A stretch of DNA of 64,000 nucleotides from Ignavibacteriota bacterium (GTDB lineage: Bacteria; Bacteroidota; Ignavibacteria; UBA10030; SZUA-254): NCBI GenBank assembly GCA_963727845.1, contig CAVSHI010000006.1, positions 3,935-67,934 of the forward strand. Reading direction: 5' to 3'. Positions 18,647 through 49,112 of this stretch are shown piece by piece. The notes below the pieces were generated by a model, which had not been told where the DNA came from, made no database searches, and saw nothing but the letters and a program-made list of their open reading frames with translations. Positions within the stretch are counted from its first letter, which is position 1. Every line of letters begins with the position of its first letter. A program made the translations under genes and the position numbers.

Positions 18647-18678
18647 TTTGATCGTTCACCTCCACCACTGTAACTTTA
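18647..18678 (+). promoter_or_regulatory. FCB-group-type promoter-like motif TTTG-N20-TAACTTTA immediately upstream of the DUF2723 gene
   Basis: TTTG lies at 18647-18650 and TAACTTTA at 18671-18678. The start codon is at 18688. This matches the Bacteroidota -33/-7 consensus (TTTG / TAnnTTTG) for spacing and sequence. Confidence 0.3.
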
Positions 18679-18687
18679 AAGGATAGT

Positions 18688-25897: not shown

Positions 25898-26302
25898 AGC
25901 TGAATACCTTGTTTGTGTAAGTTTGAGTGGGATAATGACAAGTTTGGGTATTGTACGAAAATGAATTCTTGTTTGCAAAAGACTGATCACCGGCAAGCCG
26001 GGTTCGAGGACAAAGCATAAGGCTTGGGCATCAGCTTTAGCATGTTGGCTCGTGCGAAAAGTCCGCGAAATGTGTCCTCCGTGACCATAATTCTGCGAAC
26101 CCTGATTCTGCCGCCGATGCGATTTGACATTAGATCAAAAATCCTTATCTTATCAAAATTCGTCACAGGCGGCCGACATGCCTTGATTCCATTGTTGTCG
26201 GGCCACAGGTCTCCAAAAAAACAACTGCAGAGTTATCTTTGAAAAATGCATGATTCTTGTTAATGTCTCCCAGTTTTTTCAGAGATCGAAGAGCGTCAAC
26301 GT

Positions 26303-29146
26303 ATGAAACAAACCCGCAACGTTGATTCCTCTTGTTGTGCTGTTTTCCTCCGGAGGATTTCCCTCGGTATATTTATCCTTCTGGCCGGATATGTCTCTTT
26401 TGTGTTCGCAGGCAACACCGGCAAGATTGCCGGCAAAGTGACAGACGCGAAGACGAAAGAGGCGCTGGTTGGAGTGAATGTGATTGTTCAAGGAACGACA
26501 CTGGGCGCCGTGACGAATCTTGACGGTGATTACACAATTCTCAATATTCCTCCCGGCGCGTATACGTTAAAGGCGTCGATCCTGGGATATGACCTCGTGA
26601 CGGTCAATGAGGTCCGGATTTCCATCGACCTGACTACTCGTCAGGACTTTGCGCTGACTGAAACGGTTATGGAACAAAAGGAAGTTGTGATAACAGCACA
26701 GCATCCTCTTGTTCAGAAAGACCTTACTGCGACCACCGCGGTCATCGGGAAGGAGGAGATTGCGGCGCTCCCTGTGACAGAAGTGTCTCAGCTGTTGAAT
26801 CTCAAGGCGGGGTACGTCTCGGGTAGCCTCCGTGGAGGACGTACGGGTGAAGTCGCCTACTGGATCGATGGGGTACCGGTAACGAACGCCTACGACGGAA
26901 GCCAGGTGGTTGAAGTAAACAAGAATATGGTTCAGGAAATGCAGGTCGTTTCCGGCGCGTTCAATGCCGAGTACGGTCAGGCGATGTCGGGTATCGTCAA
27001 CATAGCGACGAAAGAGGGCGAGAGTAAATTTCACGGAGGACTGAGCGGGTATGGCGGGCAATATGCCACGTCATCCGATGCCAATTATGATCAGGAGGGT
27101 CACGAGATTTCAGAGCTCTTCCCGGGGCTCAACCGTTTTCAGCCTACCGCGATCCATGACATCGAGGGCAACCTCAGCGGTCCACTGATTGGAGATGCAT
27201 TGACGTTCTTCGCAAACGCCCGCTATATTTATTTCGGCGGTGATTTTTACGGAATCCGCCGTTTCAATCCTCAAAACGTCGCTTACTTCGACAGCAGCAA
27301 TAATTATCACCTCTATAGAGATCCATCGGGCAAAGGAGACAGCTCATTTGTCCCGATGAACTGGAGCGAACGGTCGTACGCACAGGGCAAGTTGACCTGG
27401 CATATCAATCCTACGCTGAAGCTCACCGGCAATTTCATCTACGACGACGACGTGGCGAAGGCCTACGACCGGACCTATTTTCTCGACCCGGACGGAAAGG
27501 GCAATAACTACAATGTAAGCAATACGTTTATCTTCCAGCTCACGGACATGCTCAGTCCAAGCACGTTTTGCACGCTCGGTGGGTCGTACTTCGACAAGGA
27601 CTTCCAGTACTACCTCTATCAGGATCCGCACGACCCGCGGTATGTGAATCCCGGCGTGGCTATTTCCACGGAGCCGTACAGCTTCCTGACGGGCGGCACG
27701 GATCTCGGGAGGTCTCACCAGGTGACGATCACGAAACTTTTGAAGTTCGACCTCTCGAGCCAGGTCAATCAGAACAATCTCATAAAAGGCGGAGTGGAGT
27801 TTCGCCTGCATCATATCTATGATGAGAATATGACTCTCATCCCGGTGCAATCCGAGGTGGCCTTCAACCGGGTGACGAGCAACCCGTACATCCAGACGGA
27901 AATTCCGGATCTCGGGACGGTAAATCATGATATGTACAATCACAGTCCCGTGGAACTCTCCGGATACATTCAGGACAAGCTTGAGTTCAGTAGTTTCATT
28001 CTGAACATTGGTATCCGGTATGATTATTTTGATCCCAATGCCCTGGTACTCAACGATGCCCATCCGGATCCGAACGACCCTCTTCACCATATGTATACGG
28101 TCGATGACCCGGACATCTATTCCCCTATAACTCCCCAGCACCTGGCGGACAATCTAAGCATGAGGGAGACGTATTGGTATAAGAAAGCCTCGGTCAAGAC
28201 TCAGTTGAGTCCGAGGATAGGCGCATCGTTTCCGATCACGTCCACGGGTGTCGTACACTTTTCGTATGGTCATTTCTTCCAGATCCCCAACTTCCAACGG
28301 CTATATGAAAACCCGCAGTTCGTTCTGGGTCAGGGTACCGGAAACCAGGGCTTGTTTGGGAATGCCGACCTGGCAGCCGAACAAACGACCAACGGTGAGC
28401 TTGGCATACAGGAGCAGGTGGCGGAGGGCCTCTCGATGGACCTGACTGCCTATATTCGCGACATCCGGAATCTTACGAGCTCCAACAGCCAAACGGTCAT
28501 CTACGGTGGCTCCGCGATGTATACGCAGTATCAGAACAGTGATTTCGGGTATGTCAAGGGAGTTGTCCTGACGATGAAGAAAAGGTTCAGCGAAAAATTA
28601 TCGGCCACTTTGGATTACACATACCAGATAGCACGGGGCACGGCCTCCGACCCGACGCAGGCTCGCACGGCCCTTATTGGCGGTGCGCTGCCGGAGGTCC
28701 AGATTGCACCGTTGAACTGGGACCAGCGGCACACCGCGAATGCAACATTGTCCTACGATTCGCATCCGTGGGGGTTCGGTCTTATCGGGCAATACGGCAG
28801 CGGTACTCCATACACGCCGCAAACCATCGCCAGCGACATCAGTACGATCCTGACAAACAGCGAATCGAAGCCGACGTTCTTCGACCTGGACGCACAGGCG
28901 TATTATGAATTCCAGACGCACCCCGTAAAGGTTGTCCTTTTCGCGCGCGTCATCAACCTCCTCGACATACGCAATGAAACCGGCGTGTTCCCCCTGACGG
29001 GAAGGGCGGATTTCACTCCCGAGGAGCAATTAGCGTACTCGACCAATCCCGCCCAGGATGTGAATACTGTCGATCAATACTATCGGTATCCCGACCATTT
29101 TTCCGAGCCAAGACGTATTGAAGTCGGTTTGAATTTTGATTTCTAA
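26303..29146 (+). CDS. TonB-dependent outer-membrane receptor with an N-terminal carboxypeptidase-regulatory-like domain
   Basis: The CarbopepD_reg-like segment is GKIAGKVTDAKTKEALVGVNVIVQGTTLGAVTNLDGDYTI. It is followed by a plug region and a long beta-barrel. TATCTTTG at 26234-26241 is a possible -7 box. Confidence 0.75.
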   Translation: MKQTRNVDSSCCAVFLRRISLGIFILLAGYVSFVFAGNTGKIAGKVTDAKTKEALVGVNVIVQGTTLGAVTNLDGDYTILNIPPGAYTLKASILGYDLVTVNEVRISIDLTTRQDFALTETVMEQKEVVITAQHPLVQKDLTATTAVIGKEEIAALPVTEVSQLLNLKAGYVSGSLRGGRTGEVAYWIDGVPVTNAYDGSQVVEVNKNMVQEMQVVSGAFNAEYGQAMSGIVNIATKEGESKFHGGLSGYGGQYATSSDANYDQEGHEISELFPGLNRFQPTAIHDIEGNLSGPLIGDALTFFANARYIYFGGDFYGIRRFNPQNVAYFDSSNNYHLYRDPSGKGDSSFVPMNWSERSYAQGKLTWHINPTLKLTGNFIYDDDVAKAYDRTYFLDPDGKGNNYNVSNTFIFQLTDMLSPSTFCTLGGSYFDKDFQYYLYQDPHDPRYVNPGVAISTEPYSFLTGGTDLGRSHQVTITKLLKFDLSSQVNQNNLIKGGVEFRLHHIYDENMTLIPVQSEVAFNRVTSNPYIQTEIPDLGTVNHDMYNHSPVELSGYIQDKLEFSSFILNIGIRYDYFDPNALVLNDAHPDPNDPLHHMYTVDDPDIYSPITPQHLADNLSMRETYWYKKASVKTQLSPRIGASFPITSTGVVHFSYGHFFQIPNFQRLYENPQFVLGQGTGNQGLFGNADLAAEQTTNGELGIQEQVAEGLSMDLTAYIRDIRNLTSSNSQTVIYGGSAMYTQYQNSDFGYVKGVVLTMKKRFSEKLSATLDYTYQIARGTASDPTQARTALIGGALPEVQIAPLNWDQRHTANATLSYDSHPWGFGLIGQYGSGTPYTPQTIASDISTILTNSESKPTFFDLDAQAYYEFQTHPVKVVLFARVINLLDIRNETGVFPLTGRADFTPEEQLAYSTNPAQDVNTVDQYYRYPDHFSEPRRIEVGLNFDF

Positions 29147-29152: not shown

Positions 29153-32100
29153 ATGATCAACAGCAAAATACAAATAGTTGCAGCCGCACTTGCCATAGCG
29201 CTCCTGTCGACGCCGGCGTGGACTCAGCAGGGCCAGAGTGGCGCCTCCTATCGAAAAATCAATATTCATAATGCCAACCAGGTCCGAACCGTTTTCGGAA
29301 ACTGGGGTGTTATTGGTCAGCCCTGTAGCGGTGGACCGCGCGGCGCCTGGAGATATGATAATGACGGTTATCTCGGTGATGTGAGTCCGCTTGTAGGCGC
29401 CGAAATCACTTCACAGGGAACGACATTCCATTGTGTTGAGGGCTCTCCTGTCGACCGGCCCACGACGGCGACGGATACGGATCCGCGCACCGGTAAGTAC
29501 TGGACGTTCGAGCCGGTGAATGGTTACAATAATCCGAACGGACAGGTCCTTGCAATGAGCACCGACCCGACCTCCTGGCCGCCCTCTTGGCCCGATAAGG
29601 CCGCCGATCCCCTCGATCCAGGATGGCGAGGAGAGTGGAACGGCTACTTCGGAAAGAACGTCATGAACGCCGACCAGGAAAGCTATTTCGTGATGGACGA
29701 TAACAACAATGACCGTTTCAATTATAGCGTGAACAACTCGTTTAATGTCGCCTTTAAACCGGATTCAACTGACTCTACCAGGAATGGACTGGGGCTGGTC
29801 ATGAGCGTTCGCGGGCTCCAATGGGCGCAGTTCCTTGCAAAGGATAATATTTTCTGGCTGTACGAGATCGACAACACTGGAACGACAAATTACACGAAGG
29901 TCGTTTTCGGGCTGCTTGTGGGTACGTATGTCGGCGTCACGGGGTGCAACGACGCGCCGATGGAGTACGATAACGATTGGTCATTTTATGATGTTCAAAC
30001 CAACCTGACGTACACCGGGAATTATCCGCCCACGCAGATGAAAAATCCCCTCTGGATCGGCAACGTTGGGTTGGTCGGATATGCCTTTCTCGAGAGCCCC
30101 GGGAATCCCTACGACGGCATCGATAACGATGGAGATGCCGACTCAAGTATCACGGGCAAGGCAGCTCCACAATTTCAGGAAAGCGATTTCAGCGACTCAA
30201 CGTTGGTCGTACCGGGCACAAAGCTCATCCTCATCGATACGAACTATGTCCGGAGCATCTATACGGTGCCGAACGTGGATTCGGTTCTCGTCCACACGCG
30301 CGGATTCTCCATGATGCTTTACCCCCATGCCATTCCTTCTCAGTACATCAAACCGGAGGGGAACGTCCTGTACGACGCGGCCCACAATCCATACGTCAAT
30401 CCTAATGCGTATGATGGAGTCGACAACAATTTCAACGGACTCATCGATGAGAATTACTACCTGCATTATCATCAGATCAAGAAAGATCCCAAAACAGGTC
30501 ACGTCCTCATCGATATTCTGCGACCCCTTCGGCACATCAATTACCTTACGGGTGCCGGGAGCGATCCCTATAGTATGATCGACGAACGGCGGGATGACCT
30601 GATCGACAACAACCTCAACTGGAACATTAAGTTCGACGACGTCGGGATCGATGGTGTACCGAATACCGGGGACTACGGGGAAGGGGATGGTCTGCCCACG
30701 TCGGGATATGCACGGCCGCTGTTAAATGAACCGGGTGAGCCGCATGTCGACAAGACGGATGTGGATGAATCGGACCAGATCGGTCTGACGAGTTTCTATT
30801 ACTTTACTCCTGCCAACAATCTTTCCCTTGCCGACAAGGAAGGTCTGTGGAAAGATGTGGCTCCCGGTTATTTCGACGTTCCCACATCGATCGTGAACAA
30901 TAGGCCGCAGGGGGGCGAGGACGGAGACTTCATGTATTCTTCCGGCTATTTCCCGCTCCTGGCCGGCAAGACGGAGCGCTTTTCCCTCGCGCTTGTCTAT
31001 GGAGGACTCACCGATGACATCGATGCAAACCTTGCAGATCTGCTGAAGCACAAAATAACCGTCCAGAACATTTATAATGCAAACTATCAATTTCCGAAAC
31101 CCCCGGACAAGCCCACTGTGACGGCGGTCGCCGGTGACGGACAGGTAACGCTTTATTGGGACAGGAAAGCCGAGCAGACAATCGATGCCGTGCTTCATGT
31201 CAAAACGTTTGAAGGATACAAGATCTATCGCTCGACGGAATCGAACTTCGCCGACATCTTTACGATCACCGATGCGAGCGGGGATCCGGTGGGCTACAAG
31301 CCTCTGGCACAATTCGACCTGAAGGATGGGATCACCGGTTACTTCATCGCTCCGCCGGACCTCTTCCAGGATAACGCCGGGTATACGTACTATCTGGGGA
31401 ACGATACGGGCATTGTCCATACGTATGTCGACAAAACTGTTGAAAACGGTCTAAGATATTTCTACGCTGTGGTTGCATACTCCCGCGGCGACAACACGCT
31501 CGGAATTTTTCCGGCCGAGAATGACAAGTTCGTGAGCATAAACTCTTCCGGAGTGATCACTCATGGCATTAATGTGGCGGTGGTGACTCCCTCGGCCCCT
31601 GTCGCAGGGTATGTGCCCCCGACAACCGCCGTTCCGGTTACACATATAGCCCGCTACGGCACCGGCGAAGTCTATTACAACGTTGTGAATCCATCCACAA
31701 TCATGGGTCATACGTACAGAGTCGAATTTTTCGACACTGAAATTGACAGTGTTGATGCGGCCGGAAACCCGGTCGTGAACACGACCGATTCTACCACATG
31801 GACGCGCCTCACGACGCTGTATTCTGTGAGGGACCTTGCGACAATTTCGGAGAATTTCGTAAGCCTGGACACGGTACTGGTCTATCTCAGCAACCAGAAT
31901 CTGGTCGCCTCGACGGTTGTCGTGAGTGACAGCAGGGGCAACGTCGTGTCCCCTTCGAAATATCACCTCGATGTAACGCGGGGAACGATAAAATCTGCAA
32001 CTCCCGGGAGTCTCCCTGTGGGGAACTACCATGTGTCGTACCAGCATTATCCGGTCTACCGAAGTGCGAACATTCTCGGTTCACCTTTTGTGAACGAAGC

Positions 32101-32974
32101 CAAGGATGCGGATATTTTTGACGGTCTCAAGTTAGGCTTCAACAACGCCTGGAACATCACTGAGATTGATAGTTTGTCGCGTTGGATAGGGCTCAATCCG
32201 TATGTGTTCAGTTTCACTCCGTTGAATATTTCGAACCCCTCGATGCTTGGATACCGGCGGCCGGCGGACTACGAATTTCGGTTCTCCGACCATATTGTAG
32301 ACACATCTGTGGCGAGTACGGCCCTTTTTCTTGGCGCCACTCCGACCAATTTCAGGGTTTATAACTTGACGGAAAGCACCTATGTGAAGTTCTATTTATC
32401 CCAAACTCGTTTCTTCAATAACCAGCTATCCCCCGGGGATGATGTTGTTTTCCTCGAAAAGAGTCCAAGGGGTGACTACGTTCCGACATGGGATGTCCCT
32501 TTTGACAGAAAAGCCAGTGACAAGAACGACTCCGTATACAATTTAACGGTGGGCGATACGCTTCGAATCAGAACAACCAAGCCGTTCCATTACGGCGACA
32601 TCATGGAGTTTACACCGATTTTGCAACGGGTCAGTCAGGATACGGCCAAGAATACTCTTTCCCGCATCAAAGTCGTTCCCAACCCGTACGTGACTGCTTC
32701 CTCCCATGAACTGCCGTTGCCGCCGGGAATTACGAGCGGCCGCGGGGATCGGAGGGTCGAATTTATCCACGTCCCGGCCAGCGCAAAAATACAGATATTT
32801 ACATCCCGGGGAATCCTCGTGCGTACGCTGTACCAGGATGGGAATATTGAAGACGGAACGGTCGTATGGAATCTCAAGACGGATGAGAACCTGGATATCG
32901 CGTTCGGTGTATATTTTTATGTTGTGCAATCCAGCGTGGGATCCAAGACCGGGAAAATCGCGATCATCAAATGA
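29153..32974 (+). CDS. large secreted surface protein (1273 aa) with Ca-binding DxDxDG-type repeats, an Fn3-like domain and a T9SS C-terminal sorting domain
   Basis: It has a signal peptide. The repeats are GIDNDGDAD, DGVDNNFNGLIDEN and DVGIDGVPNTGDYGEGDG. The Fn3-like segment is KPTVTAVAGDGQVTLYWD...GYKIYRST. The C-terminal 100 aa match the T9SS sorting-domain pattern (VVPNPYV...GVYFYVVQ...KIAIIK). Confidence 0.65.
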   Translation: MINSKIQIVAAALAIALLSTPAWTQQGQSGASYRKINIHNANQVRTVFGNWGVIGQPCSGGPRGAWRYDNDGYLGDVSPLVGAEITSQGTTFHCVEGSPVDRPTTATDTDPRTGKYWTFEPVNGYNNPNGQVLAMSTDPTSWPPSWPDKAADPLDPGWRGEWNGYFGKNVMNADQESYFVMDDNNNDRFNYSVNNSFNVAFKPDSTDSTRNGLGLVMSVRGLQWAQFLAKDNIFWLYEIDNTGTTNYTKVVFGLLVGTYVGVTGCNDAPMEYDNDWSFYDVQTNLTYTGNYPPTQMKNPLWIGNVGLVGYAFLESPGNPYDGIDNDGDADSSITGKAAPQFQESDFSDSTLVVPGTKLILIDTNYVRSIYTVPNVDSVLVHTRGFSMMLYPHAIPSQYIKPEGNVLYDAAHNPYVNPNAYDGVDNNFNGLIDENYYLHYHQIKKDPKTGHVLIDILRPLRHINYLTGAGSDPYSMIDERRDDLIDNNLNWNIKFDDVGIDGVPNTGDYGEGDGLPTSGYARPLLNEPGEPHVDKTDVDESDQIGLTSFYYFTPANNLSLADKEGLWKDVAPGYFDVPTSIVNNRPQGGEDGDFMYSSGYFPLLAGKTERFSLALVYGGLTDDIDANLADLLKHKITVQNIYNANYQFPKPPDKPTVTAVAGDGQVTLYWDRKAEQTIDAVLHVKTFEGYKIYRSTESNFADIFTITDASGDPVGYKPLAQFDLKDGITGYFIAPPDLFQDNAGYTYYLGNDTGIVHTYVDKTVENGLRYFYAVVAYSRGDNTLGIFPAENDKFVSINSSGVITHGINVAVVTPSAPVAGYVPPTTAVPVTHIARYGTGEVYYNVVNPSTIMGHTYRVEFFDTEIDSVDAAGNPVVNTTDSTTWTRLTTLYSVRDLATISENFVSLDTVLVYLSNQNLVASTVVVSDSRGNVVSPSKYHLDVTRGTIKSATPGSLPVGNYHVSYQHYPVYRSANILGSPFVNEAKDADIFDGLKLGFNNAWNITEIDSLSRWIGLNPYVFSFTPLNISNPSMLGYRRPADYEFRFSDHIVDTSVASTALFLGATPTNFRVYNLTESTYVKFYLSQTRFFNNQLSPGDDVVFLEKSPRGDYVPTWDVPFDRKASDKNDSVYNLTVGDTLRIRTTKPFHYGDIMEFTPILQRVSQDTAKNTLSRIKVVPNPYVTASSHELPLPPGITSGRGDRRVEFIHVPASAKIQIFTSRGILVRTLYQDGNIEDGTVVWNLKTDENLDIAFGVYFYVVQSSVGSKTGKIAIIK

Positions 32975-32981: not shown

Positions 32982-34016
32982 ATGAATTCGTTCAGACGAG
33001 AAATTGTGCGCATTGCGTTGTTTGCCATGACCCTCTGGATCATTCTGGCAGGAGCGGCGTCCGGCCAATCAAAAGTTGGTACGACGGCGGCACAATTTCT
33101 GGGGATTGCCGTCGGCCCGCGCGCGATAGCCATGGGCGGCGCGAGCGTGGCTTCGGCGGAGGACGTGTCTTCGCTGTACTGGAATCCGGGAGCATTCGCG
33201 CAGGCGGGGAGATCCGAGGTGATGTTCACGAACTGTGAATGGTTGGCAGGCACAAAATTCCGATGGCTGGGATTGATGTACAACCTTGACGGGACCAACG
33301 CAGTGGGGGTGAGTCTCACGCAGCTCGATTACGGCGACGATGAGGTAACGACGACGACGAGCCCGGAAGGAACAGGACTGCGCTGGTCTGCAGAGGATGT
33401 CGCCATAGCCCTTTCCTACTCCCGCCGATTGACGGATATGTTCTCGCTGGGGGGCACAGTCAAGTATGTCGACCAGTCAATCTATAACGAATCGGCGAGC
33501 AGCTTCACATTCGATTTGGGACTTCTGTACGTTACGGACTTCAACGGGTTGCGCCTGGGAATGTCGATGTCGAATTTTGGCGGCGATCTCACGTTGGACG
33601 GTCAGGATTTGTACCAGCCCGTGGACATTGACCCTAACGATCCCGGTGGGAATAAGACCCTCGTCGCCAAGCTGAAAACTGATGCGTTTCCACTGCCGCT
33701 TCTCTTCCGCGTCGGAGTTGCAATGGACGTTGTGAAAACCTCCGATGTAAGGATGACCTTGGCCGCCGACGCGGAACACCCGATTGATGATGTTGAATCG
33801 GTCAATCTGGGCGGCGAGATTGGATGGCATGACATGCTGTTCCTGCGTGGCGGGTATATGTCGCTTTTTGACGTGAATTCACAAGAAGGTCTTACGCTGG
33901 GAGCCGGTGTGAAGTATTCGATGGAGGGCGGCGGTTCGCTTGAAGTGAACTACGCATTCAACAAATTCGGGGTTTTCGATAATCTCAATACGATCGGGCT
34001 TGCAATTGGTTTTTGA
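32982..34016 (+). CDS. PorV/PorQ-family outer-membrane beta-barrel protein (T9SS-associated, FadL-like)
   Basis: It has a signal peptide. The family signature is TTAAQFLGIAVGPRAIAMGGASVASAEDVSSLYWNPGAF. ATG 32982 lies 8 nt past the upstream stop. The upstream 92 codons of ORF 32706-34016 overlap the previous gene and are not coding. Confidence 0.65.
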   Translation: MNSFRREIVRIALFAMTLWIILAGAASGQSKVGTTAAQFLGIAVGPRAIAMGGASVASAEDVSSLYWNPGAFAQAGRSEVMFTNCEWLAGTKFRWLGLMYNLDGTNAVGVSLTQLDYGDDEVTTTTSPEGTGLRWSAEDVAIALSYSRRLTDMFSLGGTVKYVDQSIYNESASSFTFDLGLLYVTDFNGLRLGMSMSNFGGDLTLDGQDLYQPVDIDPNDPGGNKTLVAKLKTDAFPLPLLFRVGVAMDVVKTSDVRMTLAADAEHPIDDVESVNLGGEIGWHDMLFLRGGYMSLFDVNSQEGLTLGAGVKYSMEGGGSLEVNYAFNKFGVFDNLNTIGLAIGF

Positions 34017-34138: not shown

Positions 34139-36166
34139 ATGAAAAGATTGCTTCCATTGCTGCTGGTGGTCTTGGCCGCAGGCCTGGTACCGCTATCAGT
34201 TGCGTTTGCACAAACGACGAGCGTGACATTCATGCTGAATACGTCGACAGTGCCGGACACGTTGACTCCGATCTCGAGTATCGTCGTTATTGGTGCCGGG
34301 GATTCCCTCACCAACTGGTCGACGGGTAGACCATTGACCAATCTCGGCGGCGACTATTGGTCGGGAACGGTTAAAATCCCAACAGGGGATACTCTTCAAT
34401 ACAAGTTCCGGGTCGGCAGCGGCGGCTGGGAAGAAAATATCAACGGACCTTTTAGCGATCATACGACACGCAACATCATTGTCGGGGCAACCGATACTGT
34501 TTTGCCTGTGGCGTACTGGAACAATGGGCATTTTGCCAGTGGTAAGAACCCTGGGGAGTACGATGCACCGTGGCCTGTTGCCGCTGATACCTTCTTCAAC
34601 GTGTATTTTCGTGTGGATATGCAGGGTGTTTCTGACGCAGGCTCGTTTGGTTTCGACAAGACCAAGGATACCGTGGCGGTCCGCGGTGGTGGGAATTCCG
34701 ACCTCACGTGGGGTGCCAACCTCTGGTTGAAGCAAGAATCTTCACCCACCAGCAACGCTGGCGCGTTCGCTGTCGATCCTACGAATTTTTGGTCGGGTCG
34801 CGCGAGGATATCCAAGAACCAGGCACATCCCGGAGATACGATCCAATACAAATTTCTCATCGGCTACACTTGGGGCCACGATGAACAATTAGCATCAAAC
34901 CGCTTCTTCGTGGTTCCCACGAACTACAAGGACACAACTCTGTACTACGCTTACTATAACAACCAGAGACCTATCGTTCGTTCAAATGCGGATACGGTGG
35001 TTGTTACATACCTTGTCGACATGGCAAGTGCCATCCAGAACCGAGGCTTTGCGATCGGGGATACCCTTCAGATAACATCGGGCTACTTCGTCACTGCTCA
35101 GGCCCAGACTACAAGCACTCTGAATCGTATTGGCCTTTCAACTAAGTACACGGCAAAGGACACTGTTATCACTTCGCTGTCGAAAACGTTTGACTACCAG
35201 TTCTACATAGTGAAGAATGGCACGTCGTACCGAGAGGTCTATTATAATTTCAATTATGCGGGCGGCACTGCCAGTGAAGCGGAACGTCGCCAGGTCGTCA
35301 TTTCATCGAAGACCCAGACAATTGCTGACACCGTGAGTAGCATCTCAAGCTCGCGTCGTCAACCCTCGTTCCAGAACCAAACACTTGTCGCCCAAAATCT
35401 GACGGTGAAGTTTACTGTCGACATCCGACCTGCGATTTACGCAGTGAAAGCAGGCAAGACATTGGTCGACGGGCAGGGGCCATGGACAGTTGTATATGCT
35501 GACAGCATCTTTAAGTGGGGTGTCGCAATCAACGGACCGGCCACGGATACCACCAATGGGTGGGCATCATGGGGCGCTTCCCTCATTAACGACACTACGC
35601 ATCGGATGTACGATGACGGCACACACGGCGATGCAGTGGCTCATGATTCGATCTTCACGCGCATTTACACATACAGAGCCGGTAAGGATATCGTTGGTCA
35701 GGAATTCAAATTTGGTATCGGCGGTGGCGACAACGAAGGCGGGTACGGGAATAACCACATCCAAAATCTCGATGACAGCCAGCCCACCTCCACACTTGCA
35801 TCGCAGTTCGGCAGCATCGACCCGATTTTCTATTCGGCCTGGAATTACGACTGCGGTTGTCCGGCAAGTCCCAATGCTGTGGATGTACCGAAAATCAAAC
35901 CGGTGACATTTGCCTTGCACCAGAATTATCCGAATCCATTCAACCCGTCGACGAAGATTGAATACACTATCCCGAACGATGCGGTTGTGATGCTGAAGGT
36001 GTACAATATTCTGGGTCAGGAAATCGCAACGGTTGTGAATGAGAAACAATTCGCCGGCGCCCACTCGGCCGTCTTTGACGCGTCGAAGCTGAACAGCGGC
36101 GTCTACTTCTACAGGATCACTGCTGGTACATACTCAAGTACCAAGAAGATGTTGCTCATTAAGTAA
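34139..36166 (+). CDS. secreted protein with several CBM-like beta-sandwich repeats and a T9SS C-terminal sorting domain; candidate surface alpha-glucan-binding protein
   Basis: ATG 34139 starts a signal peptide (MKRLLPLLLVVLAAGLVPLSVAFAQ). Three or four CBM-like modules with W/Y-rich sites repeat along it (GGDYWSGTVKIPTGDTLQYKF; TIQYKFLIGYTW; DYQFYIVKNGTSY). The T9SS C-terminal domain is LHQNYPNPFNPSTKIEY...GVYFYRI...KKMLLIK. Confidence 0.65.
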   Translation: MKRLLPLLLVVLAAGLVPLSVAFAQTTSVTFMLNTSTVPDTLTPISSIVVIGAGDSLTNWSTGRPLTNLGGDYWSGTVKIPTGDTLQYKFRVGSGGWEENINGPFSDHTTRNIIVGATDTVLPVAYWNNGHFASGKNPGEYDAPWPVAADTFFNVYFRVDMQGVSDAGSFGFDKTKDTVAVRGGGNSDLTWGANLWLKQESSPTSNAGAFAVDPTNFWSGRARISKNQAHPGDTIQYKFLIGYTWGHDEQLASNRFFVVPTNYKDTTLYYAYYNNQRPIVRSNADTVVVTYLVDMASAIQNRGFAIGDTLQITSGYFVTAQAQTTSTLNRIGLSTKYTAKDTVITSLSKTFDYQFYIVKNGTSYREVYYNFNYAGGTASEAERRQVVISSKTQTIADTVSSISSSRRQPSFQNQTLVAQNLTVKFTVDIRPAIYAVKAGKTLVDGQGPWTVVYADSIFKWGVAINGPATDTTNGWASWGASLINDTTHRMYDDGTHGDAVAHDSIFTRIYTYRAGKDIVGQEFKFGIGGGDNEGGYGNNHIQNLDDSQPTSTLASQFGSIDPIFYSAWNYDCGCPASPNAVDVPKIKPVTFALHQNYPNPFNPSTKIEYTIPNDAVVMLKVYNILGQEIATVVNEKQFAGAHSAVFDASKLNSGVYFYRITAGTYSSTKKMLLIK

Positions 36167-36184
36167 CATGTAGTTTACCAATGA

Positions 36185-36224
36185 AAGCAAGGCGGGAATC
36201 GTTTCTCGCCTTGCTTTTTTATTC
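36185..36224 (+). terminator. rho-independent terminator (10-bp stem AAGCAAGGCG/CGCCTTGCTT followed by TTTTTT)
   Basis: A perfect inverted repeat and a T-run lie 19 nt after the stop at 36166. Confidence 0.7.
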
Positions 36225-36273: not shown

Positions 36274-38089
36274 ATGATGGTACTGGTTCTCATTATCTGG
36301 TCCATGTTCGCATCCTTGCCCTTCCCGGGGCGGGAGAAATCCGATGATGTTCTCGCGCGGGCGGGCAATGTCTTTATCGGCAAGCAGGAATTTCTCGAGC
36401 GATATGAATTGTTGCCGGGACTCTACCGCCATCGCAAGCCTCAACTGGAGGGTTCGAAACTTGAATTGTTGTATTCCATGATCGCCGAGAAATTGCTCAG
36501 CCGGGAGGCGCAGGCTCGGGCATTGGATCGCGATTCGATGTACATATTTGCAATGGATGCTGTGCGGAAAGCTCTCGGCAGAGACGAACTCTACCGGGAA
36601 GAAATCGCGCAAAAAGTCCACGTTTCCGAACGTGAAATCTCACGCGGCATCGCCAAAGCTCAGCGGCAACTACTCGTCGCCTACTTGTACTCGGAACGCA
36701 GAAGCGATGCCGATTTCCTGCGCATGCAAATGCGCAACGGGGATGACTTTGACAGGTCGGTGGTGGATTCGTCTGCCGGGGTTACGCGGGACACGGCAAC
36801 CGTCATCTGGGGTGATGCAGAGCCCGCCGTAGAAGACGCGGCTTATGGACTGCGCCGGGGCGGGGTATCGCCGGTTATCCAGGCGGGGGACGGATACTAT
36901 ATCCTGAAAGTTGAAGGTGCGAAGCGCAGTGATTATTTTTGCTCACTGCCACCCGACGCGCTGCACGATCGTGTTGAGTCGATTCTTAGGACGAGGAAGG
37001 AAAAAGCCCGGTTGAATGAATTTCTCGAAAAGGCTCTCAAGAATAAGACCGGCTATGCTTTGCCTCGAACGTTTCTCGTCCTCGGGAGGGCGATTGATGA
37101 AGTTTACCGGGGAAGGAAAACGCAGGCGAAGCTTTCAATGGACCGGTCAATGTATGAAGAAATCAGAAACAGATGCGCCGCTTCACTTCTCGACACTCTT
37201 GCGATAGCGGGCCGAATTCCCTGGACCGTCAATGATGTTCTTGCCCGCCTCTACGAATCCGGATTTGAAATTGACAGCGGGGATATGAAGCATCTCCCGG
37301 CACGCTTAAATACTCAACTGAAGGTTTGGGTTCAGCAAGAAGTGCTGGCCCAGGAAGCCCTGCGGCGGTCACTGGATAAGAAACCCGGGTTGCGGAAACA
37401 ACTTGAGATGTGGTCGCATTATTATCTTGCAGGACTCATGAAAGATTACCTCAATGAGCATGTCGCAGTTTCCGACTCGGAAGCATGGTCGTTTCTTCAA
37501 TCAAAGGAGAAGAAAGACATAATCCCGCAAGTGAGGATTCGGGAACTTCGGACCGCCACAGCGGATGAAATGAAAGAGGCTGTGTCCGACCTTCAGAATG
37601 GGATGTCGTTTGAGAATGCGGTGGAGAAGTATTCAAACGACCTCAAAGCGAAATTGTCCAAGGGCGTTTCGGACTTCTTCCCGGTCACGGAACATCCCCC
37701 GATAGGTGAGATTGCTTCGCAAATGGAAATCGGCCAGCGGTATGGTCCTGATTATCGTCAAAGGGGGGATCGATTTCTTCGAATTACTGGACAGGAAGAT
37801 ACCGGCGATCATTGACACGCTGCCTCTGGCGAAGAGGAAACAGGCCGCCGGCAATGAATTGCTGGCAATGAAACGGAAGAGAACTCTCACATTGTTTCTT
37901 GCTCAGGTTGCAAAGGAGCGGGGATACGAAATCGACCAGGACAAATTGCAGGCAACAGAGGTCACCACGATACCAATGATGACGTACAGGATCCTCGGGT
38001 TCGGCGGTCGAATGTGGGCAGTTCCGTTTGTCGATAAACAACTGGACTGGATAAATGTTGAACCTCCGTCCACACCGATCATACCATAA
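36274..38089 (+). CDS. SurA-like periplasmic chaperone / PpiC-type peptidyl-prolyl isomerase; apparent +1 frameshift near 37706-37745 (ORFs 36253-37815 and 37706-38089)
   Basis: The N-terminus is hydrophobic. The PpiC-like domain is split across frames: frame A ends ...MSFENAVEKYSNDLKAKLSKGVSDFFPVTEHPPIGEIASQMEIGQ, and frame B continues SGMVLIIVKGGIDFFELL, which is GYHIIKV-like. Confidence 0.5.
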
Positions 38090-42500: not shown

Positions 42501-42627
42501 TGAGGTAAAGCAACCCGGCGAATACACTGTTAGGTGGAATGCGGAAGGGGTCGCAAGCGGCGTGTACTTCTACCAGCTCACATCGGACAATGCCCGGCTC
42601 ATGCGGAAAATGCTGCTTATCCGTTAA
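39577..42627 (+). CDS. GH13 alpha-amylase with an N-terminal Ig/CBM-like region and a T9SS C-terminal sorting domain
   Basis: Its ATGA start overlaps the upstream stop, and it has a signal peptide. The GH13 core is YNIIWIMPV ... region I DITPNHTS ... GVDGFRFDV ... ILGETDG. The C-terminus is FALYQNYPNPFNPTTTVSF...GVYFYQL...RKMLLIR. Confidence 0.85.
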   Translation: MKNFALLMMCLGLQVAYSQDSVDVYFMYKSPSNPSIVYLPGEFNNWADNNSGVIYPSSQWDMTKDSVSGMWYKWLRLKVGGGPTSQVAGAYQYKFNENGCSTCWLNDPLNQHVNNSDNSNSLIYVKDPTIFHFLPNQRQPIVNTAMPEISAYIFPKVGTSVDTASISLTIDTSTFTNMGSDYNFSTHRLIFTLSSALTNGSHTAILYARSLAGGANADTVVFYVESGFVQLLNQSPLSTWESKWTLYGSVNDSTITSVNIIHNSTDTFLVPVAGKSFTYSASLLEGANVFSAVTDSAGSPRVSAPVTIIREVNHSPWATISLSDSSGGIQLSALSSSDPDSGQSTLLTYSWSVDAANPSVIAGVSGSTAGQILVSKPSIPGEYYFGLIATDPNGNKDTTRNYFTVNGDGTVSYPTLASNPSWLNRGRMYLLFFKSATAAGTINAALPLLDYIKAMGYNIIWIMPVMKNASPMDNLYGTGYNIVDFYNVAPEYGSNVDFQNFVARAHQLGIRVIQDITPNHTSSMHPFAGDIQNFRKSSRYWNFYEHQLITNPNYHPDLTEGYTDDSLFVVYSAFGDMLLNYNWSDLDARKYMIGVYKWWVKEMGVDGFRFDVYWGPHSRADGGNGGEDEMGQPVRAALKHIKPDIFILGETDGTGIGTEVNYGDRNGGIDAGYDWNLFHNGIQNFYSSGPQISALNFYLLNGGSTTMGFEPGPNAYFMRFLEDQDEDRIAYVYGSLAKTMPVSTIVLTSVGIPLVYSGQELGWGLGIPGAKEARSRSVIDWNYSGKSTLQPHYQKLAQIRSLFSPLWTQQQISVSTGNGFVMGYTRPLNDLNCIVLANFDASSHMSSVALTVGGTPNVFFSHGVVNGRTYYASDLYNDTVYDVTFNAGSATLSVNLQAYGSAVIVLDETTHTLLLPPITDVKTSGVGVPRQFALYQNYPNPFNPTTTVSFAISHSSFVTLKVYDVLGREVTALVNEVKQPGEYTVRWNAEGVASGVYFYQLTSDNARLMRKMLLIR

Positions 42628-42644
42628 TCGTCCGACGCTTTCAC

Positions 42645-43898
42645 TTGTCTGCGAAGATTACATCTTGCCACGTTTCCGGACCCCTCAAGGGACTTCTCTT
42701 TCTCCTTGTGATAGTTTCGCTGAACGCCTGCACGCGCCACGTTGACCCGCATCGGATTGTCATCTGGCATCAGATGCGCGTGGACGAGCGCGAGATTCTC
42801 GAAGACCAGATGAACCAATTCATGAAACTCCACCCCGATGTCCGAGTTGAGGCCGTCTACAAGGAGACCGAAGAATTGCGTTCCGGCTTCATTGTTGCCG
42901 CGATTGCAGGCCAGGGCCCCGATTTGGTGTACGGTCCATCCGACCAGGTCGGCCCGTTCCAGGTAATGAACATCATCGTTCCTCTGGACACTCTTTTTGA
43001 AAAAGCGTGGCTGGATTCATTTAATCCCAAGGCGCTGACGTGGTACAAGGGACATCTCTACCAGATTGCCGATAAGCTGGGGAATCATCTTACGCTTGTG
43101 TACAACAGGAAAATTGTCCAGAAACCGCCCGAGACGGATGTCGAGCTGATCGATCTGTGCAAGAAGCTCATGGTGTATAAAGACGGCAAGGTTGAGCGGT
43201 ACGGTTTGGTCTGGAATTACACCGAGCCCTACTTCTACATACCGTTCCTGAGCGGTTTCGGGGGATGGGTGATGAATGACAGCGGCGTCCCGACGCTTAA
43301 CTCTGAGAGCAATATCGAAGGATTACAGTTTATCAAGGATCTCCGCGACAAGTACCAGATCATTCCTGCCGAAGCCGATTACAACGTCGCGGATGCGCTT
43401 TTCAAAGACGGGAAAGCGGCAATGATCATCAACGGTGATTGGTCCTGGTCGGGATACCGGAAATCGGGAATCGACATCGGGGTCGCGCCGCTTCCGAAAA
43501 TCAGCAAGACCGGTCTGTGGTGTGCGCCGATGATTTCTCCGAAGGGATATTCGATCAACATCAATGTCCCCAGGGAAAAACTCCCGTTGATTGTGGAGTT
43601 CCTGAAATTCATGATGCAACCGGAGATTCAATTGCAGACGGCGAAGGCGCTCACAACAATGCCGACGCGGACGTCGCTCTACGACGATCCGTTCATCAAA
43701 AACGACGACATTCTCATCAATTCGGAGAAACAAATCGAGCGGGGCAGACCGATGCCGGTTGTGCCTGAATTGCGCGCAATCTGGGATGCGATGAGGCCCA
43801 GTTACCAGGCCGTCCTTGGCGGTGCGATAACGCCGCGGCAGGCCGCTTATGACATGCAGATCACGGCAATACGAAAGATCGCGGAGATGAATGAGTAG
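42645..43898 (+). CDS. malE: maltose/maltodextrin-type ABC transporter substrate-binding lipoprotein (MalE-like, SBP family 1)
   Basis: It has a lipoprotein signal (LLFLLVIVSLNAC). The fold is family-1 SBP-like across the protein. The likely start is TTG 42645 in frame; the earlier part of ORF 42534-43898 overlaps the previous gene. Confidence 0.7.
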   Translation: MSAKITSCHVSGPLKGLLFLLVIVSLNACTRHVDPHRIVIWHQMRVDEREILEDQMNQFMKLHPDVRVEAVYKETEELRSGFIVAAIAGQGPDLVYGPSDQVGPFQVMNIIVPLDTLFEKAWLDSFNPKALTWYKGHLYQIADKLGNHLTLVYNRKIVQKPPETDVELIDLCKKLMVYKDGKVERYGLVWNYTEPYFYIPFLSGFGGWVMNDSGVPTLNSESNIEGLQFIKDLRDKYQIIPAEADYNVADALFKDGKAAMIINGDWSWSGYRKSGIDIGVAPLPKISKTGLWCAPMISPKGYSININVPREKLPLIVEFLKFMMQPEIQLQTAKALTTMPTRTSLYDDPFIKNDDILINSEKQIERGRPMPVVPELRAIWDAMRPSYQAVLGGAITPRQAAYDMQITAIRKIAEMNE

Positions 43899-44118
43899 TT
43901 AGGTCGTTGAATAGTTGGGTAGTTAAGTAGTTGAGATAAAGAGATGCCAGAACATTTTTTAATTTTTCATTTTTAATTTTGAATTGTTAGCAAAAAGCTC
44001 AAGGCCAGAACCAGGAACTAATGACCTATGAATAATGAGCAACGAGTAAAGCCAAATGACTAATGACCGATAACGAAGAACCAAGAACCAATAACCAAGA
44101 ACGCTTCTTCACAATGAC
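43899..44118. repeat. AT-rich low-complexity spacer between malE and malF, with a 15-bp tandem direct repeat (CATTTTTTAATTTTT / CATTTTTAATTTTGA) and reiterated TAGTT and AACCAAGAAC motifs
   Basis: The repeats are visible in the sequence. The composition contrasts with the flanking GC-rich DNA. Confidence 0.5.
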
Positions 44119-45012
44119 ATGAACAGAGTGTACCGAAATATTTTCATAGTGTTGTTTGTCGCGCCGGCGTTCCTTATCCTTTTCGGGGTCGTGTTCTATC
44201 CGTTTCTGTACAACGTCGTTATCTCCTTTTCCAATATGAACCTGAGCCATATCAAGGATTGGCATCTCATCGGGTTCAAACAATACGCCAAGGTGTTTAC
44301 GGAGACCACGGAACCGAATTTTTATCAAATTTTCGTCAAGACGATCATCTGGACGGTGGTGAATGTTTTGTTCCATGTCGTGTTCGGCGTTTTCCTTGCG
44401 CTGCTGCTGAATCAGAAGATCCGAGGCCGATCGGTGTACCGGACGCTCCTAATCCTGCCATGGGCGATTCCACAGTACATTGTTGCATTGACGTGGCGCG
44501 GAATGTTCAATTATGAGTACGGTTCCATTAATCTCGTCATCACAAAATATCTTCATTTGCCTGCGGTAGAATGGCTCAAGAGTCCGACCGAGGCATTTCT
44601 CGCCTGCATTTTCACAAATGTCTGGCTCGGCTTTCCGTTTATGATGGTTGTTGCGCTCGGGGCGCTCCAGAGTATCCCGCATGAATTGTATGAGGCCGCG
44701 GATATTGACGGGGCTTCCTGGTATCACAAATTGCGCAACATAACGCTTCCTCTCATTCGGCCTGTCATGGTCCCGGCAATCACGCTGGGGATCGTGTGGA
44801 CGTTCAATAATCTGAATATCGTTTGGCTGGTCAGCAATGCCGGCGAACCGTCCGACAAGACGCACATTCTCGTCTCATTTGTGTACAAAGCCGCATTCAA
44901 TCTGTACCGGTACGGGTATGCAGCGGCAATGTCGATGGTTATATTCTTCATTCTCCTGATCTTCAGTGTGGCATTCATGCGAAAAGCACGGGCCACGGAG
45001 GCGGCGTACTGA
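44119..45012 (+). CDS. malF: carbohydrate ABC transporter permease (MalF-like)
   Basis: It has six TM segments. The ABC permease EAA-like loop is ALQSIPHELYEAADIDGASWYHKLRNITLPLIRP. Confidence 0.8.
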   Translation: MNRVYRNIFIVLFVAPAFLILFGVVFYPFLYNVVISFSNMNLSHIKDWHLIGFKQYAKVFTETTEPNFYQIFVKTIIWTVVNVLFHVVFGVFLALLLNQKIRGRSVYRTLLILPWAIPQYIVALTWRGMFNYEYGSINLVITKYLHLPAVEWLKSPTEAFLACIFTNVWLGFPFMMVVALGALQSIPHELYEAADIDGASWYHKLRNITLPLIRPVMVPAITLGIVWTFNNLNIVWLVSNAGEPSDKTHILVSFVYKAAFNLYRYGYAAAMSMVIFFILLIFSVAFMRKARATEAAY

Positions 45013-45061
45013 TGATCTCGGATTGTGGAATGAGGATTGTGGATTACAAGAACTGACGAAG

Positions 45062-45904
45062 ATGAAAGCGAGAAAAATAAAAAGGCTCTCTGTCAGGATA
45101 CTGACGCACATTATCCTTCTTGTGTTTGTTGTTATCGCGGTCTATCCCGTGCTTCAGGTCGTGACGATTTCTTTGCGCCCTACGGATAAACTCCTCTCGA
45201 CCTCCCTGGAGATCATTCCCCGCGGGGCGACACTGAGATCCTACGTGTCGCTCTTTACCGAACGGCCGTTCCTTCTCTGGGTAAGCAACAGCGCGCTCGT
45301 ATCCGTTACCGTCACGCTCACCGGAGTCATCTTGGCGGCGATGGCCGGCTACGCATTTTCCCGGTTCAGCTTCATCGGCAAGAGGGCGGGATTGTTGAGC
45401 CTGCTCGTCACACAGATGTTTCCTGCCACGATGCTGCTGCTGCCGCTGTACATTATGTTGATTTACTTCGGGTTGATCAACACCTATTTCGGCTTAATCG
45501 TCACGTACACGGCGACGGCGCTTCCATTTTGCATCTGGACGATGAAGGGATACTACGATACGATTCCAACAAGCCTCGAAGAAGCCGCCCGCATTGACGG
45601 GTGCAATCAATTCCAGGCATTCTACAAGATCATTTTGCCGCTCGCGGCCCCGGCACTGGTGATCACCGGGTTGTTTTCGTTCATGACGGCGTGGTCGGAG
45701 TACATCGTTGCAGCTCAGATATTGCAGGATTCGGCGTTGTGGACTCTTCCGCTCGGGCTGAAGTCGTTTGAGTCCAACATGTCGACCGAGTGGGGATTGT
45801 ACGGTGCGGCATCCCTCGTTGTGATGGTTCCGGTGGTTGTTCTGTTTCTTGTCCTGAGCCGGTGGCTGGTTTCCGGACTCACGCTCGGGAGCGTAAAGGG
45901 GTAG
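45062..45904 (+). CDS. malG: carbohydrate ABC transporter permease (MalG-like)
   Basis: ATG 45062 (MKARKIKRLS) is preferred. The EAA motif is LEEAARIDGCNQFQAFYKIILPLAAP. Confidence 0.8.
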   Translation: MKARKIKRLSVRILTHIILLVFVVIAVYPVLQVVTISLRPTDKLLSTSLEIIPRGATLRSYVSLFTERPFLLWVSNSALVSVTVTLTGVILAAMAGYAFSRFSFIGKRAGLLSLLVTQMFPATMLLLPLYIMLIYFGLINTYFGLIVTYTATALPFCIWTMKGYYDTIPTSLEEAARIDGCNQFQAFYKIILPLAAPALVITGLFSFMTAWSEYIVAAQILQDSALWTLPLGLKSFESNMSTEWGLYGAASLVVMVPVVVLFLVLSRWLVSGLTLGSVKG

Positions 45905-47292: not shown

Positions 47293-48450
47293 CTAGTAGA
47301 GGAACATCGGCTTTCCGAGCAGGTGGACGACTCTCGGACGGTAATGATCTTTGTCGTACAGCTCGTCCACGTCGACCCGCTTTTTGCCTTCTGTGATGAT
47401 GTTCGCGGAGACGGTCGTGTATTTCCCGTCGCGTAACGCTACCATCCGGCCCGATTGCTTTTTCAGCAGGAGGTCGGTCGCAAGATATCCGTAGCTTGTC
47501 GAAACCATCCGGTCGAGTGCGTCGGGTTCGCCGCTGCGCATCAGGTACGCAAGCTGCTGGAAGATTGTCCTGACGCCCGATCGCGCTTCAATTTCCTTGC
47601 TTACGTAATCTCCGATGCCGCCGAGTTTTTTATGTCCGTAAGCGTCTGCCTCGCCCGACATGACCATCTCTCCGCCCACCGGCTTCGCGCCTTCTGAAAT
47701 TGTCATGATGGCGTAGTGGCTGGGATTGTTCGCCCGGTCATCGAGGAGGAATTTCACGAGCCTGTCGACATCAAATTCCACCTCTGAAATAATCGCGCGG
47801 TCGACACCGGCCAGGTAGGCTGAAATGAGCGACGTCTCGCCGGAATATCGCCCGAAGAGCTCGATGACTGCGATGCGCTCGTGCGAGCCGGTGGGAGTGC
47901 GAAGGGAGTGGATGAAATCCACGCTTCGCGTTACCGCGGTCGAGAATCCGAGGCAGTAGTCTGTCCCGTATACATCGTTGTCCATCGTTTTTGGAATGCA
48001 CACGACCGGAAAGCCTTCTTTGTGTAGCCGGACAGCGTAGCTCAGGGTATCGTCTCCGCCGATGGCGATCAGAGCGTCGAGCTTCAGATGTTCGAGCACC
48101 CGGAGTGCATGCTTTGTGCAATCGATGGGGCTGTCTTTGTCTGTCCCCCCAAATGTGGCTTTCAAGAACTCCGGCAGCTCCTTGGGTTTCACTTTCCCCG
48201 GGTTGGTACGCGACGTGTGAAGATAGGTGCCCCCGGTTCTGTCGATCGTTCTCGTATTTGATTTCGTCAAGGGTATGATATGTTGTTCCTGGGATTGTGG
48301 ATCGTCGGGATCGAAATGCAGCAACCCGGCCCAGCCGCGCCTGAATCCGAACATCAGATGATCTTCATCCGTGGCACGATAAACAGCCGCTTTGATACAC
48401 GGGTTAAGCCCCGGTACGTCACCGCCGCCTGTTAATATTCCAATACGCAT
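47293..48450 (-). CDS. pfk: 6-phosphofructokinase (PFK family; the GGDD motif suggests a PPi-dependent type)
   Basis: PFK motifs are present: [19 protein letters not shown]; IGGDDTL; PKTMDNDV. Confidence 0.85.
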
Positions 48451-49101: not shown

Positions 49102-49112
49102 ATCATTCCTTT

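Follow-up and report, generated by a model that had tools for sequence, protein, structure and literature searches.

In Porphyromonas gingivalis, two type IX secretion system (T9SS) cargo proteins are known to keep uncleaved C-terminal tails, that of PorZ being held on PorQ and that of PorU on PorV, both of them 14-stranded outer-membrane barrels, and, as suggested in a review, cognate PorV-like barrels may shield such tails from cleavage (PMC10202324). The FadL-fold barrels SprF/PorP have been proposed to anchor neighboring type-B cargo on the cell surface, with multiple cognate pairs per genome (PMC9143113). Here we analyze a locus in a 64-kb stretch of DNA from an Ignavibacteriota bacterium (the whole stretch is referred to below as the window), in which the gene of a PorV/PorQ-family barrel comes directly after those of a TonB-dependent receptor and of a secreted protein of 1273 amino acids (aa) that we call BIG. 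Judged from gene order and sequence comparison, receptor, BIG and barrel form one co-inherited module. The reading that we favor, with moderate confidence, is that the T9SS exports BIG and that its uncleaved tail docks it on its cognate, PorQ-like barrel beside the receptor.

Glycan capture in the Fibrobacteres-Chlorobi-Bacteroidetes (FCB) superphylum is known mostly from the SusC/SusD systems of Bacteroidia. To our knowledge, the Ignavibacteria, Calditrichota, Marinimicrobia and KSB1 are large and environmentally abundant sister groups that lack SusD, and the coupling of surface binding to TonB-dependent uptake has not been described for them. The triad shares with SusC/SusD a receptor with an N-terminal carboxypeptidase-regulatory-like domain followed by the gene of a surface protein, its repetition in tandem and its setting among substrate-specific glycoside hydrolases and binding proteins, that is, the same genomic role. 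However, there is no SusD homolog in the triad locus, the receptor is not a SusC/RagA protein, and BIG is not a lipoprotein but appears to be a T9SS cargo needing a third gene, the barrel, for its retention at the surface. Taken singly, a PorV-family barrel, a T9SS tail and a TonB-dependent receptor are known components; what appears to be undescribed is the constant association of the three, the variant form of the tail and the uncharacterized BIG family. Literature searches, whose coverage was incomplete and which are no proof of absence, found no description of the receptor-BIG-barrel arrangement, which is also absent from the genome paper on Caldithrix abyssi.

A receptor-BIG-barrel triad conserved across phyla

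Related loci were collected by scanning one genome per species with an alignment of 20 barrel sequences; a divergent alignment of 66 sequences was too variable. The scan yielded 79 loci, with barrels 39 to 65% identical to that of the window. By label, 23 were from Ignavibacteriota, 8 from Calditrichota, 9 from Neomarinimicrobiota and 2 from KSB1, with one each from Kryptonium, Stahlbacteria, Rhodothermaceae and the "FCB group," the remainder being unclassified or vaguely labeled, so that at least 6 phylum-level groups are represented.

Triads were counted by searching the six-frame open reading frames (ORFs) of all loci with the window proteins. The order receptor, BIG, barrel was fixed. A BIG homolog directly preceded the barrel in 76 of the 76 cases with at least 1.5 kb of DNA upstream of the barrel and, conversely, a barrel came after BIG in all 79 cases with downstream DNA, 77 of them within 400 nucleotides (nt) and with an estimated median gap of 7 nt. 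The receptor was found directly upstream of BIG in 56 of 57 cases (those with at least 3 kb of upstream DNA), and the sole exception, L025, was due to a 100-N gap that masked the gene, giving 57 of 57 once resolved. Two close relatives of the window have an identical gene order. A preliminary description of this stretch had already suggested a cognate barrel beside its T9SS substrate; the adjacency agrees with this, although the closest precedent is PorZ-PorQ and PorU-PorV and not, as proposed there, PorP/SprF with type-B domains. The same description placed the barrel in a catabolic operon and left out both the obligate receptor and the fact that the arrangement recurs in several phyla and at loci unrelated to starch.

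Second or third triads, some of them cut by contig ends, were present at L024, L032, L038, L040 (three triads), L057, L060, L069 and L073. Within the complete tandem triads (L040, L057 and L060), the paralogs were 43 to 49% identical for barrels, 32 to 36% for BIG and 33 to 43% for receptors, the tandem triads being ancient copies of the entire unit. The similarities of the three triad proteins to their window copies were correlated across loci (Spearman, 0.73 to 0.86). The second triad of L024 (positions 13845 to 20183) is divergent, with a short BIG of ∼710 aa, which scored 56.7 bits with the hidden Markov model (HMM) of the BIG tail, and a barrel that scored 106 bits against the window barrel. 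The triad module probably extends well past the 39% identity limit of our sample.

The genes that accompany the triad were much more variable. The gene 3′ of the barrel ends in a type-A T9SS tail in 33 of 70 cases, and type-A cargo was found in 49 of the 81 triad loci. The type-A protein encoded directly downstream of the window barrel (34139 to 36166) had been put forward as a second possible partner of the barrel, a pairing that is not conserved given these numbers. A homolog of a SurA/PrsA-like isomerase, which may be an accessory factor, was detected in 25 of the 81. Triads also occur in contexts other than starch, namely, with CBM4_9 and GH2 (L048), with GH3 (L062) and with CBM4_9 and a GDE_C-like gene (L039). 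At L083, from a metagenome-assembled genome (MAG) of Caldithrix abyssi (positions 394 to 18815), the neighbors of the triad are a metallophosphoesterase, a glycerol-3-phosphate-oxidase-like gene and two Lamin-tail-domain (LTD) proteins with type-A tails, which could point to phosphorylated or nucleic-acid-derived compounds as the substrates taken up.

A PorV/PorQ-family barrel distinct from the housekeeping proteins

The barrel gene starts with an ATG 8 nt beyond the last base of the BIG stop codon (TGA, 32972 to 32974), leaving 7 intergenic bases. The product has a signal peptide ending in ...AASG/QSK and terminates in ...LAIGF. The PorV-family signature that had been noticed just past the stop of the 1273-aa protein was confirmed; it consists of AAQFLGIAVGPRAIAMGGA (residues 36 to 54) and YWNPGAF (residues 66 to 72), aligns with the N terminus of PorV, and includes positions F39, L40, G52, W67, N68 and P69, which are invariant in the alignment of triad barrels.

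The NCBIfam model of the PorV/PorQ family (NF033709) matched the barrel with 203.1 bits (cutoff, 90; E value, 8.1e−60) over the complete profile (positions 1 to 326 of 326), and the Pfam PorV model (PF19572) matched it with 45.1 bits (cutoff, 27). By these scores, the barrel is a real member of the PorV/PorQ family, an assignment far beyond chance. However, it fell below the cutoffs of all equivalog models: 100.8 bits against 220 for PorQ (NF033711), restricted to the N-terminal 190 positions; 78.6 against 250 for PorV (NF033710), in the N-terminal half only; and 75.4 against 325 for PorV2 (NF052325). The same was true of the 42 triad-verified relatives, all of which matched the NF033709-type family (E values from 1e−60 to 1e−72) while staying under the equivalog cutoffs. 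PorQ was the highest-scoring equivalog model for the window barrel and for 42 of 42 triad barrels (best relative, E value of 1.7e−38, an extrapolated ∼133 bits), and the best match of a relative to the PorV equivalog had an E value of 9.7e−30. The expectation that this is not the housekeeping PorV is therefore well supported, by the cutoffs and by the tandem paralogs that relatives carry.

The profile HMM comparison of PorV, PorQ and PorP/SprF that had been recommended pointed to the broad PorV/PorQ family, with no match of the barrel to the PorP/SprF family at E values of ≤10 (Pfam) or ≤0.01 (NCBIfam). Membership of the FadL/OmpP1/TodX group was rejected, as the Toluene_X model (PF03349) gave 14.6 bits (cutoff, 29.7; E value, 0.012) over 34 residues. 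When a profile of 34 barrel homologs was compared with the sequences in the PDB, Flavobacterium johnsoniae PorV was the sole match and no FadL chain was found. The barrel and F. johnsoniae PorV (6H3I/8GL6) align over the N-terminal signature and the first approximately eight strands but are only 18 to 19% identical, the window barrel being ∼50 residues shorter. There is one PorV-family ORF in the window. Beyond it, the barrel has at least 120 relatives among cluster representatives at 62 to 85% identity, and the few named ones among the close relatives listed come from Ignavibacteriales or "Bacteroidota" MAGs; in a library clustered at 50% identity, 9913 representatives were related to the barrel at an E value of ≤1e−3.

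An AlphaFold2 (AF2) model of the barrel (predicted local distance difference test [pLDDT], 72.7; predicted template modeling score [pTM], 0.67) has 15 strand elements by DSSP, which we read as 14 strands, with the plug segment at low confidence. Its best fold matches in the PDB were the PorV chains 8gl6_F and 6h3i_F (E value, 4e−11; template modeling score [TM], 0.62 to 0.64), whereas FadL, TodX and TbuX were weaker (TM, 0.46 to 0.53, with 0.46 to 0.52 for FadL; E values of ∼1e−8). The model describes an outer-membrane protein of FadL fold, with 14 strands and a plug segment at its N terminus, and the earlier assignment to PorV/PorQ instead of FadL holds for structure as well as for sequence (203 against 14.6 bits).

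A feature specific to this subfamily of barrels is a long acidic loop between model strands 191 to 206 and 241 to 252, part of it at low confidence. It lies in the region from 211 to 275 that has no alignment to PorV. Over 42 triad barrels, G207 and P239 were invariant and D215, G222 and N224 nearly so. By strand parity in the model, this should be extracellular loop 4. It is tempting to imagine the acidic loop meeting the basic SGRGER insertion of the BIG tail (see below), although this is speculation.

BIG and its variant of the T9SS sorting domain

BIG as a whole matched neither Pfam nor NCBIfam. We found 2065 homologs, and the 120 of them that were listed are without a Pfam domain and have either no name or the annotation "hypothetical." Their lengths across loci range from ∼950 to 1620 aa. 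The N termini are type I signal peptides, usually ending in A-Q-S-G, and have no lipobox; BIG cannot arrive at the surface in lipoprotein form. All homologs share three conserved blocks (residues 51 to 330, 500 to 860 and 1050 to 1273), separated by variable regions (∼340 to 480 and ∼870 to 1000) that are absent or unalignable in most distant homologs and are candidates for substrate-specific inserts. Asp-rich, DxDxDG-like repeats at residues ∼320 to 330, 420 to 435 and 480 to 545 resemble calcium-binding sites. A low-confidence AF2 model of residues 25 to 650 (pLDDT, 59.9) gave no significant fold match in the PDB (best E value, 2.9e−3; TM, 0.27); the weak matches were sandwich domains of GH94/GH149 phosphorylases, from which we draw no conclusion.

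In conservation, the C-terminal domain of BIG equals or exceeds the remainder of the protein, and it ranks among the most conserved parts. The consensus of 83 tails reads VVPNPYv..s.E.....SGRGER.I.F..LP..c.I.IyT..G.LV.tL...dG...W.L....l..AyGVYfY.V.a...g...GK.AiIK. The preliminary description had taken BIG to be sorted by the T9SS, and this stands in part. No curated model recognized the tail above its cutoff, TIGR04183 giving 16 to 17.5 bits (cutoff, 23) and PF18962 no match (cutoff, 27). Nevertheless, an hhalign comparison of the 83 BIG tails with 79 type-A tails from the window and related loci gave a probability of 96% and an E value of 3e−9, with the conserved insertion E...SGRGER of ∼15 aa, located between the first two strands of the tail, left unaligned. 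At the level of profile comparison, the BIG tail is a homologous variant of the type-A domain that falls outside it by the curated threshold. A type-B domain was searched for in the last 207 aa of BIG, with no match at an E value of ≤1.

When 41 BIG tails were scanned singly, the C-terminal end of the PorZ model was matched by 35 (best E value, 4e−9) and that of the PorU sortase model by 29 (best E value, 4e−6), compared with 12 for TIGR04183. In the PDB, the BIG-tail profile likewise had as its top two hits the C-terminal domain of PorU (6za2; E value, 0.007) and that of PorZ (5m11; E value, 0.013), both of them marginal. The CBM20 type-A protein of the window locus matched neither PorZ nor PorU.

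Proposed assembly and alternative explanations

The conserved adjacency and a barrel that is not the housekeeping one together support a cognate cargo-barrel pair, similar in spirit to SprB/SprF. As in SprB-SprF of F. johnsoniae and PG1035-PorP, the cargo gene adjoins that of its own FadL-fold barrel and there are many such pairs. Yet the triad barrel belongs to another family, the tail is type-A-derived and not type B, no PorE-like gene is present and there is always a TonB-dependent receptor. Closest in working are PorQ-PorZ and PorV-PorU, with which the triad shares barrels that score best on the PorQ equivalog and tails that score best on those of PorZ and PorU. The differences are that triad barrels are not PorQ orthologs (101 to 133 bits against the cutoff of 220) and have many paralogs per lineage, not one; that their cargo is BIG, of an uncharacterized family and with the SGRGER insertion in its tail; and that the pair is always in an operon with a TonB-dependent receptor, in nutrient utilization loci.

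In the sequence of events that we propose, the receptor, BIG and barrel genes would be cotranscribed as one module, with the barrel as the dedicated partner of BIG. Sec would take BIG across the inner membrane and the T9SS across the outer one, after which the PorZ/PorU-like tail of BIG would escape removal by the sortase and stay noncovalently bound to the cognate PorQ-like barrel, perhaps through the acidic surface loop of the latter and the basic SGRGER insertion. Such docking would keep BIG on the cell surface beside the receptor. At the window locus, secreted CBM20 and GH13 proteins would bind starch and break it up, BIG together with the receptor would capture and import the maltooligosaccharides, and the ATP-binding cassette (ABC) system and cytoplasmic enzymes would complete their use, the outcome being a SusD-less starch uptake complex. 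The neighboring type-A enzymes and binding proteins (here CBM20 and GH13, for starch) would set the substrate specificity.

Several observations weigh against this docking scheme. Co-inheritance, including correlations of the mirror-tree kind, cannot tell which of the triad proteins touch each other. One barrel of 39% identity from Neomarinimicrobiota (L068, 872 to 1903) has no BIG upstream, where an isomerase-like gene is found instead, and on its downstream side lies the gene of a 1074-aa canonical type-A protein, and so related barrels can serve other partners. The likeness of the BIG tail to PorZ and PorU is weak, the best single E value being the 4e−9 mentioned above and the scores lying far under the full-length cutoffs, and one of the tandem paralogs of L040 does not have the SGRGER motif. 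The barrel model is only moderately confident, and the key loop is at low confidence. Finally, the window contains no core T9SS gene, the system being inferred only from type-A tails: two canonical type-A sorting domains encoded in the locus imply a T9SS in the organism.

An alternative that we consider unlikely is that the barrel is a transient, cargo-specific shuttle, standing in for PorV at the SprA translocon solely to pick up BIG, and possibly the type-A proteins of the locus as well, with the BIG tail then cleaved and BIG attached to lipopolysaccharide or released. PorV has been described as such a shuttle and PorP-like proteins have been proposed to fetch their own cargo at the translocon (PMC10202324, PMC9143113), and the homology of the BIG tail to type-A domains, together with the type-A cargo at more than half of the triad loci (49 of 81), would fit. 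However, the BIG tail is closer to the retained tails than to the generic cleaved type, its conservation at least equals that of the remaining protein, and the type-A gene downstream is missing in about half of the cases. Moreover, the strict one-to-one gene pairing and the old tandem paralogs fit a stoichiometric partner better than a catalytic shuttle. Rather unlikely, too, is a barrel that serves the receptor, or the complex in its entirety, as a structural or assembly partner, independently of the C-terminal domain of BIG. The model for such a role would be BamG, a FadL-fold barrel that is a platform for surface proteins within the β-barrel assembly machinery (PMC12578637). The receptor is as strictly linked as BIG (57 of 57), barrel and receptor were the best correlated pair (Spearman, 0.83), a SurA-like isomerase gene is found at 25 of 81 loci, and 21 of the 42 triad barrels gave weak matches to BamG; these matches (best E value, 1.3e−7) are nonetheless very weak beside those to the PorV family, the barrel gene always lies directly behind BIG and not behind the receptor, and the special tail of BIG would be left unexplained.

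A FadL-type diffusion channel, by which some small substrate or product would pass the outer membrane, seems highly improbable. The fold is that of the FadL superfamily, with the TM values given above for FadL, TodX and TbuX, but the Toluene_X score is below its cutoff, sequence and structure alike agree better with PorV, and the barrel is kept beside loci for chemically unrelated substrates, where the TonB-dependent receptor already supplies uptake. That the gene is a housekeeping PorV or PorQ lying here by chance has a close to negligible probability; family membership is as expected for it, whereas the scores under the PorV, PorQ and PorV2 cutoffs, the two or three tandem copies per contig and the constant presence in the triad are not.

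The starch utilization locus in the window

The features of the locus are listed in Table 1. From their domain content, the genes around the window barrel constitute a starch utilization locus. The promoter-like site and the terminator-like hairpin, both of them pattern matches, suggest that receptor, BIG, barrel and CBM20 genes make up a four-gene unit, of which the CBM20 gene is probably the last. In the receptor, CarbopepD_reg_2 and Plug scored 69.7 and 31.2 bits, respectively, and the SusC/RagA model TIGR04056 gave 71 bits (cutoff, 368) over its N-terminal 200 positions only; no close homolog of it was found among solved structures. No SusD family member was detected among the 40 window ORFs scanned.

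Table 1 Features of the triad and its surroundings in the 64-kb window
Feature	Position (nt)	Strand	Remarks
Promoter-like site	26124..26151	+	TTGACA-16-TATCTT, 10/12 matches; consensus scan, pattern only; ∼150 nt upstream of receptor gene
TonB-dependent receptor, first gene of triad	26303..29146	+	947 aa; N-terminal CarboxypepD_reg domain, Plug, barrel
BIG, secreted protein, second gene of triad	29153..32974	+	1273 aa; start 6 nt past receptor stop
BIG C-terminal domain, variant T9SS sorting domain	32660..32971	+	Residues 1170-1273; VVPNPY, insertion of ∼15 aa E...SGRG(D/E)R, then F.H.P...I.IFT..G.LV.TL...W.L....L..AFGVYFY...GK.AIIK
PorV/PorQ-family outer-membrane barrel, third gene of triad	32982..34016	+	344 aa; ATG to stop; NF033709 match
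N-terminal PorV-family signature, plug/hatch segment	33087..33197	+	Barrel residues 36-72; from translation
Long conserved acidic loop of barrel	33600..33701	+	Residues ∼207-240, GQDLYQPVDIDPNDPGGNK...; subfamily-specific
CBM20 starch-binding protein with canonical type-A T9SS sorting domain	34139..36166	+	675 aa; Por_Secre_tail 41.9, CBM_20 29.5, TIGR04183 49.1 bits
Terminator-like hairpin	36183..36218	+	16-bp stem and T-run; 17 nt past CBM20 gene; pattern match only
SurA/PrsA-like peptidyl-prolyl isomerase	36277..38089	+	Rotamase matches; frameshifted near 37751-37785
Two GH13 alpha-amylase-family genes	38102-39580, 39577-42627	+	Pfam Alpha-amylase 256.6, 131.2 bits
ABC sugar importer of inner membrane, solute-binding protein and two permeases	42534..45904	+	SBP_bac_8, SBP_bac_1, BPD_transp_1

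The second GH13 protein bears a type-A T9SS sorting domain (Por_Secre_tail, 39.7 bits). The split isomerase gene reflects either an assembly indel or a pseudogene; its intact ortholog of 603 aa in L004 corresponds to one frame for residues 1 to 503 and to another for residues 492 to 603. The ABC solute-binding protein, if read as its longest ORF, would begin within the last 94 nt of the GH13/type-A gene (overlap, 42534 to 42627); this ORF encodes 454 aa, compared with 403 aa in the L004 ortholog, the true start probably being further downstream.

A second alpha-glucan block, with genes on both strands, extends from 47293 to 61442 and includes a phosphofructokinase, GlgC, a GlgA-like starch synthase, a pullulanase-type GH13 with CBM48, a GH77 4-alpha-glucanotransferase and another GH13, so that uptake and storage genes for alpha-glucans are clustered over ∼35 kb. 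Elsewhere in the window, the gene at 2188 to 5292 (+) matched Pfam GH123_N over the entire 969-position profile (1506 bits) and is followed by that of a DUF5107-TPR protein and by a second ORF with a GH123 catalytic domain (8926 to 10320). A truncated Mutator-family transposase ORF of 289 aa (10536 to 11405, minus strand; profile positions 214 to 298 of 379) is flanked on one side by this glycosidase-like block (the GH123-like ORFs and the DUF5107/TPR gene, with a rhamnosidase further upstream) and on the other by an NPCBM alpha-galactosidase gene. In the 964-aa protein encoded at 18688 to 21582 (+), a domain unusual in bacteria, a TMEM260-like protein O-mannosyltransferase, was strongly matched (180 bits).

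Implications for surface nutrient capture

In Ignavibacteria and their relatives, the triad probably fills the role that SusC/SusD has in Bacteroides. More tentatively, and with rather less confidence than in the docking scheme for the window locus, it could be an undescribed, multiphylum outer-membrane machine for nutrient capture, a SusC/SusD counterpart in Ignavibacteriota, Calditrichota, Neomarinimicrobiota, KSB1 and related groups, in which the surface partner of the receptor would be no lipoprotein but a giant T9SS-exported protein that a retained tail of the PorZ/PorU type holds permanently on its own PorQ-like barrel. For the phyla concerned, the strictly conserved triad offers a concrete and testable answer, as well as a marker for finding utilization loci, and the BIG family, with more than 2000 homologs, would gain a context. 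In the T9SS field, it would extend the idea of PorV-like barrels that keep certain tails uncleaved, which now rests on PorZ-PorQ and PorU-PorV, and would add to it a large, paralogous and substrate-linked family with a recognizable tail variant. If our reading is true, docking by a cognate "tail plus barrel" would be a general, modular way to build surface complexes, and type IX secretion would be tied directly to TonB-dependent import.

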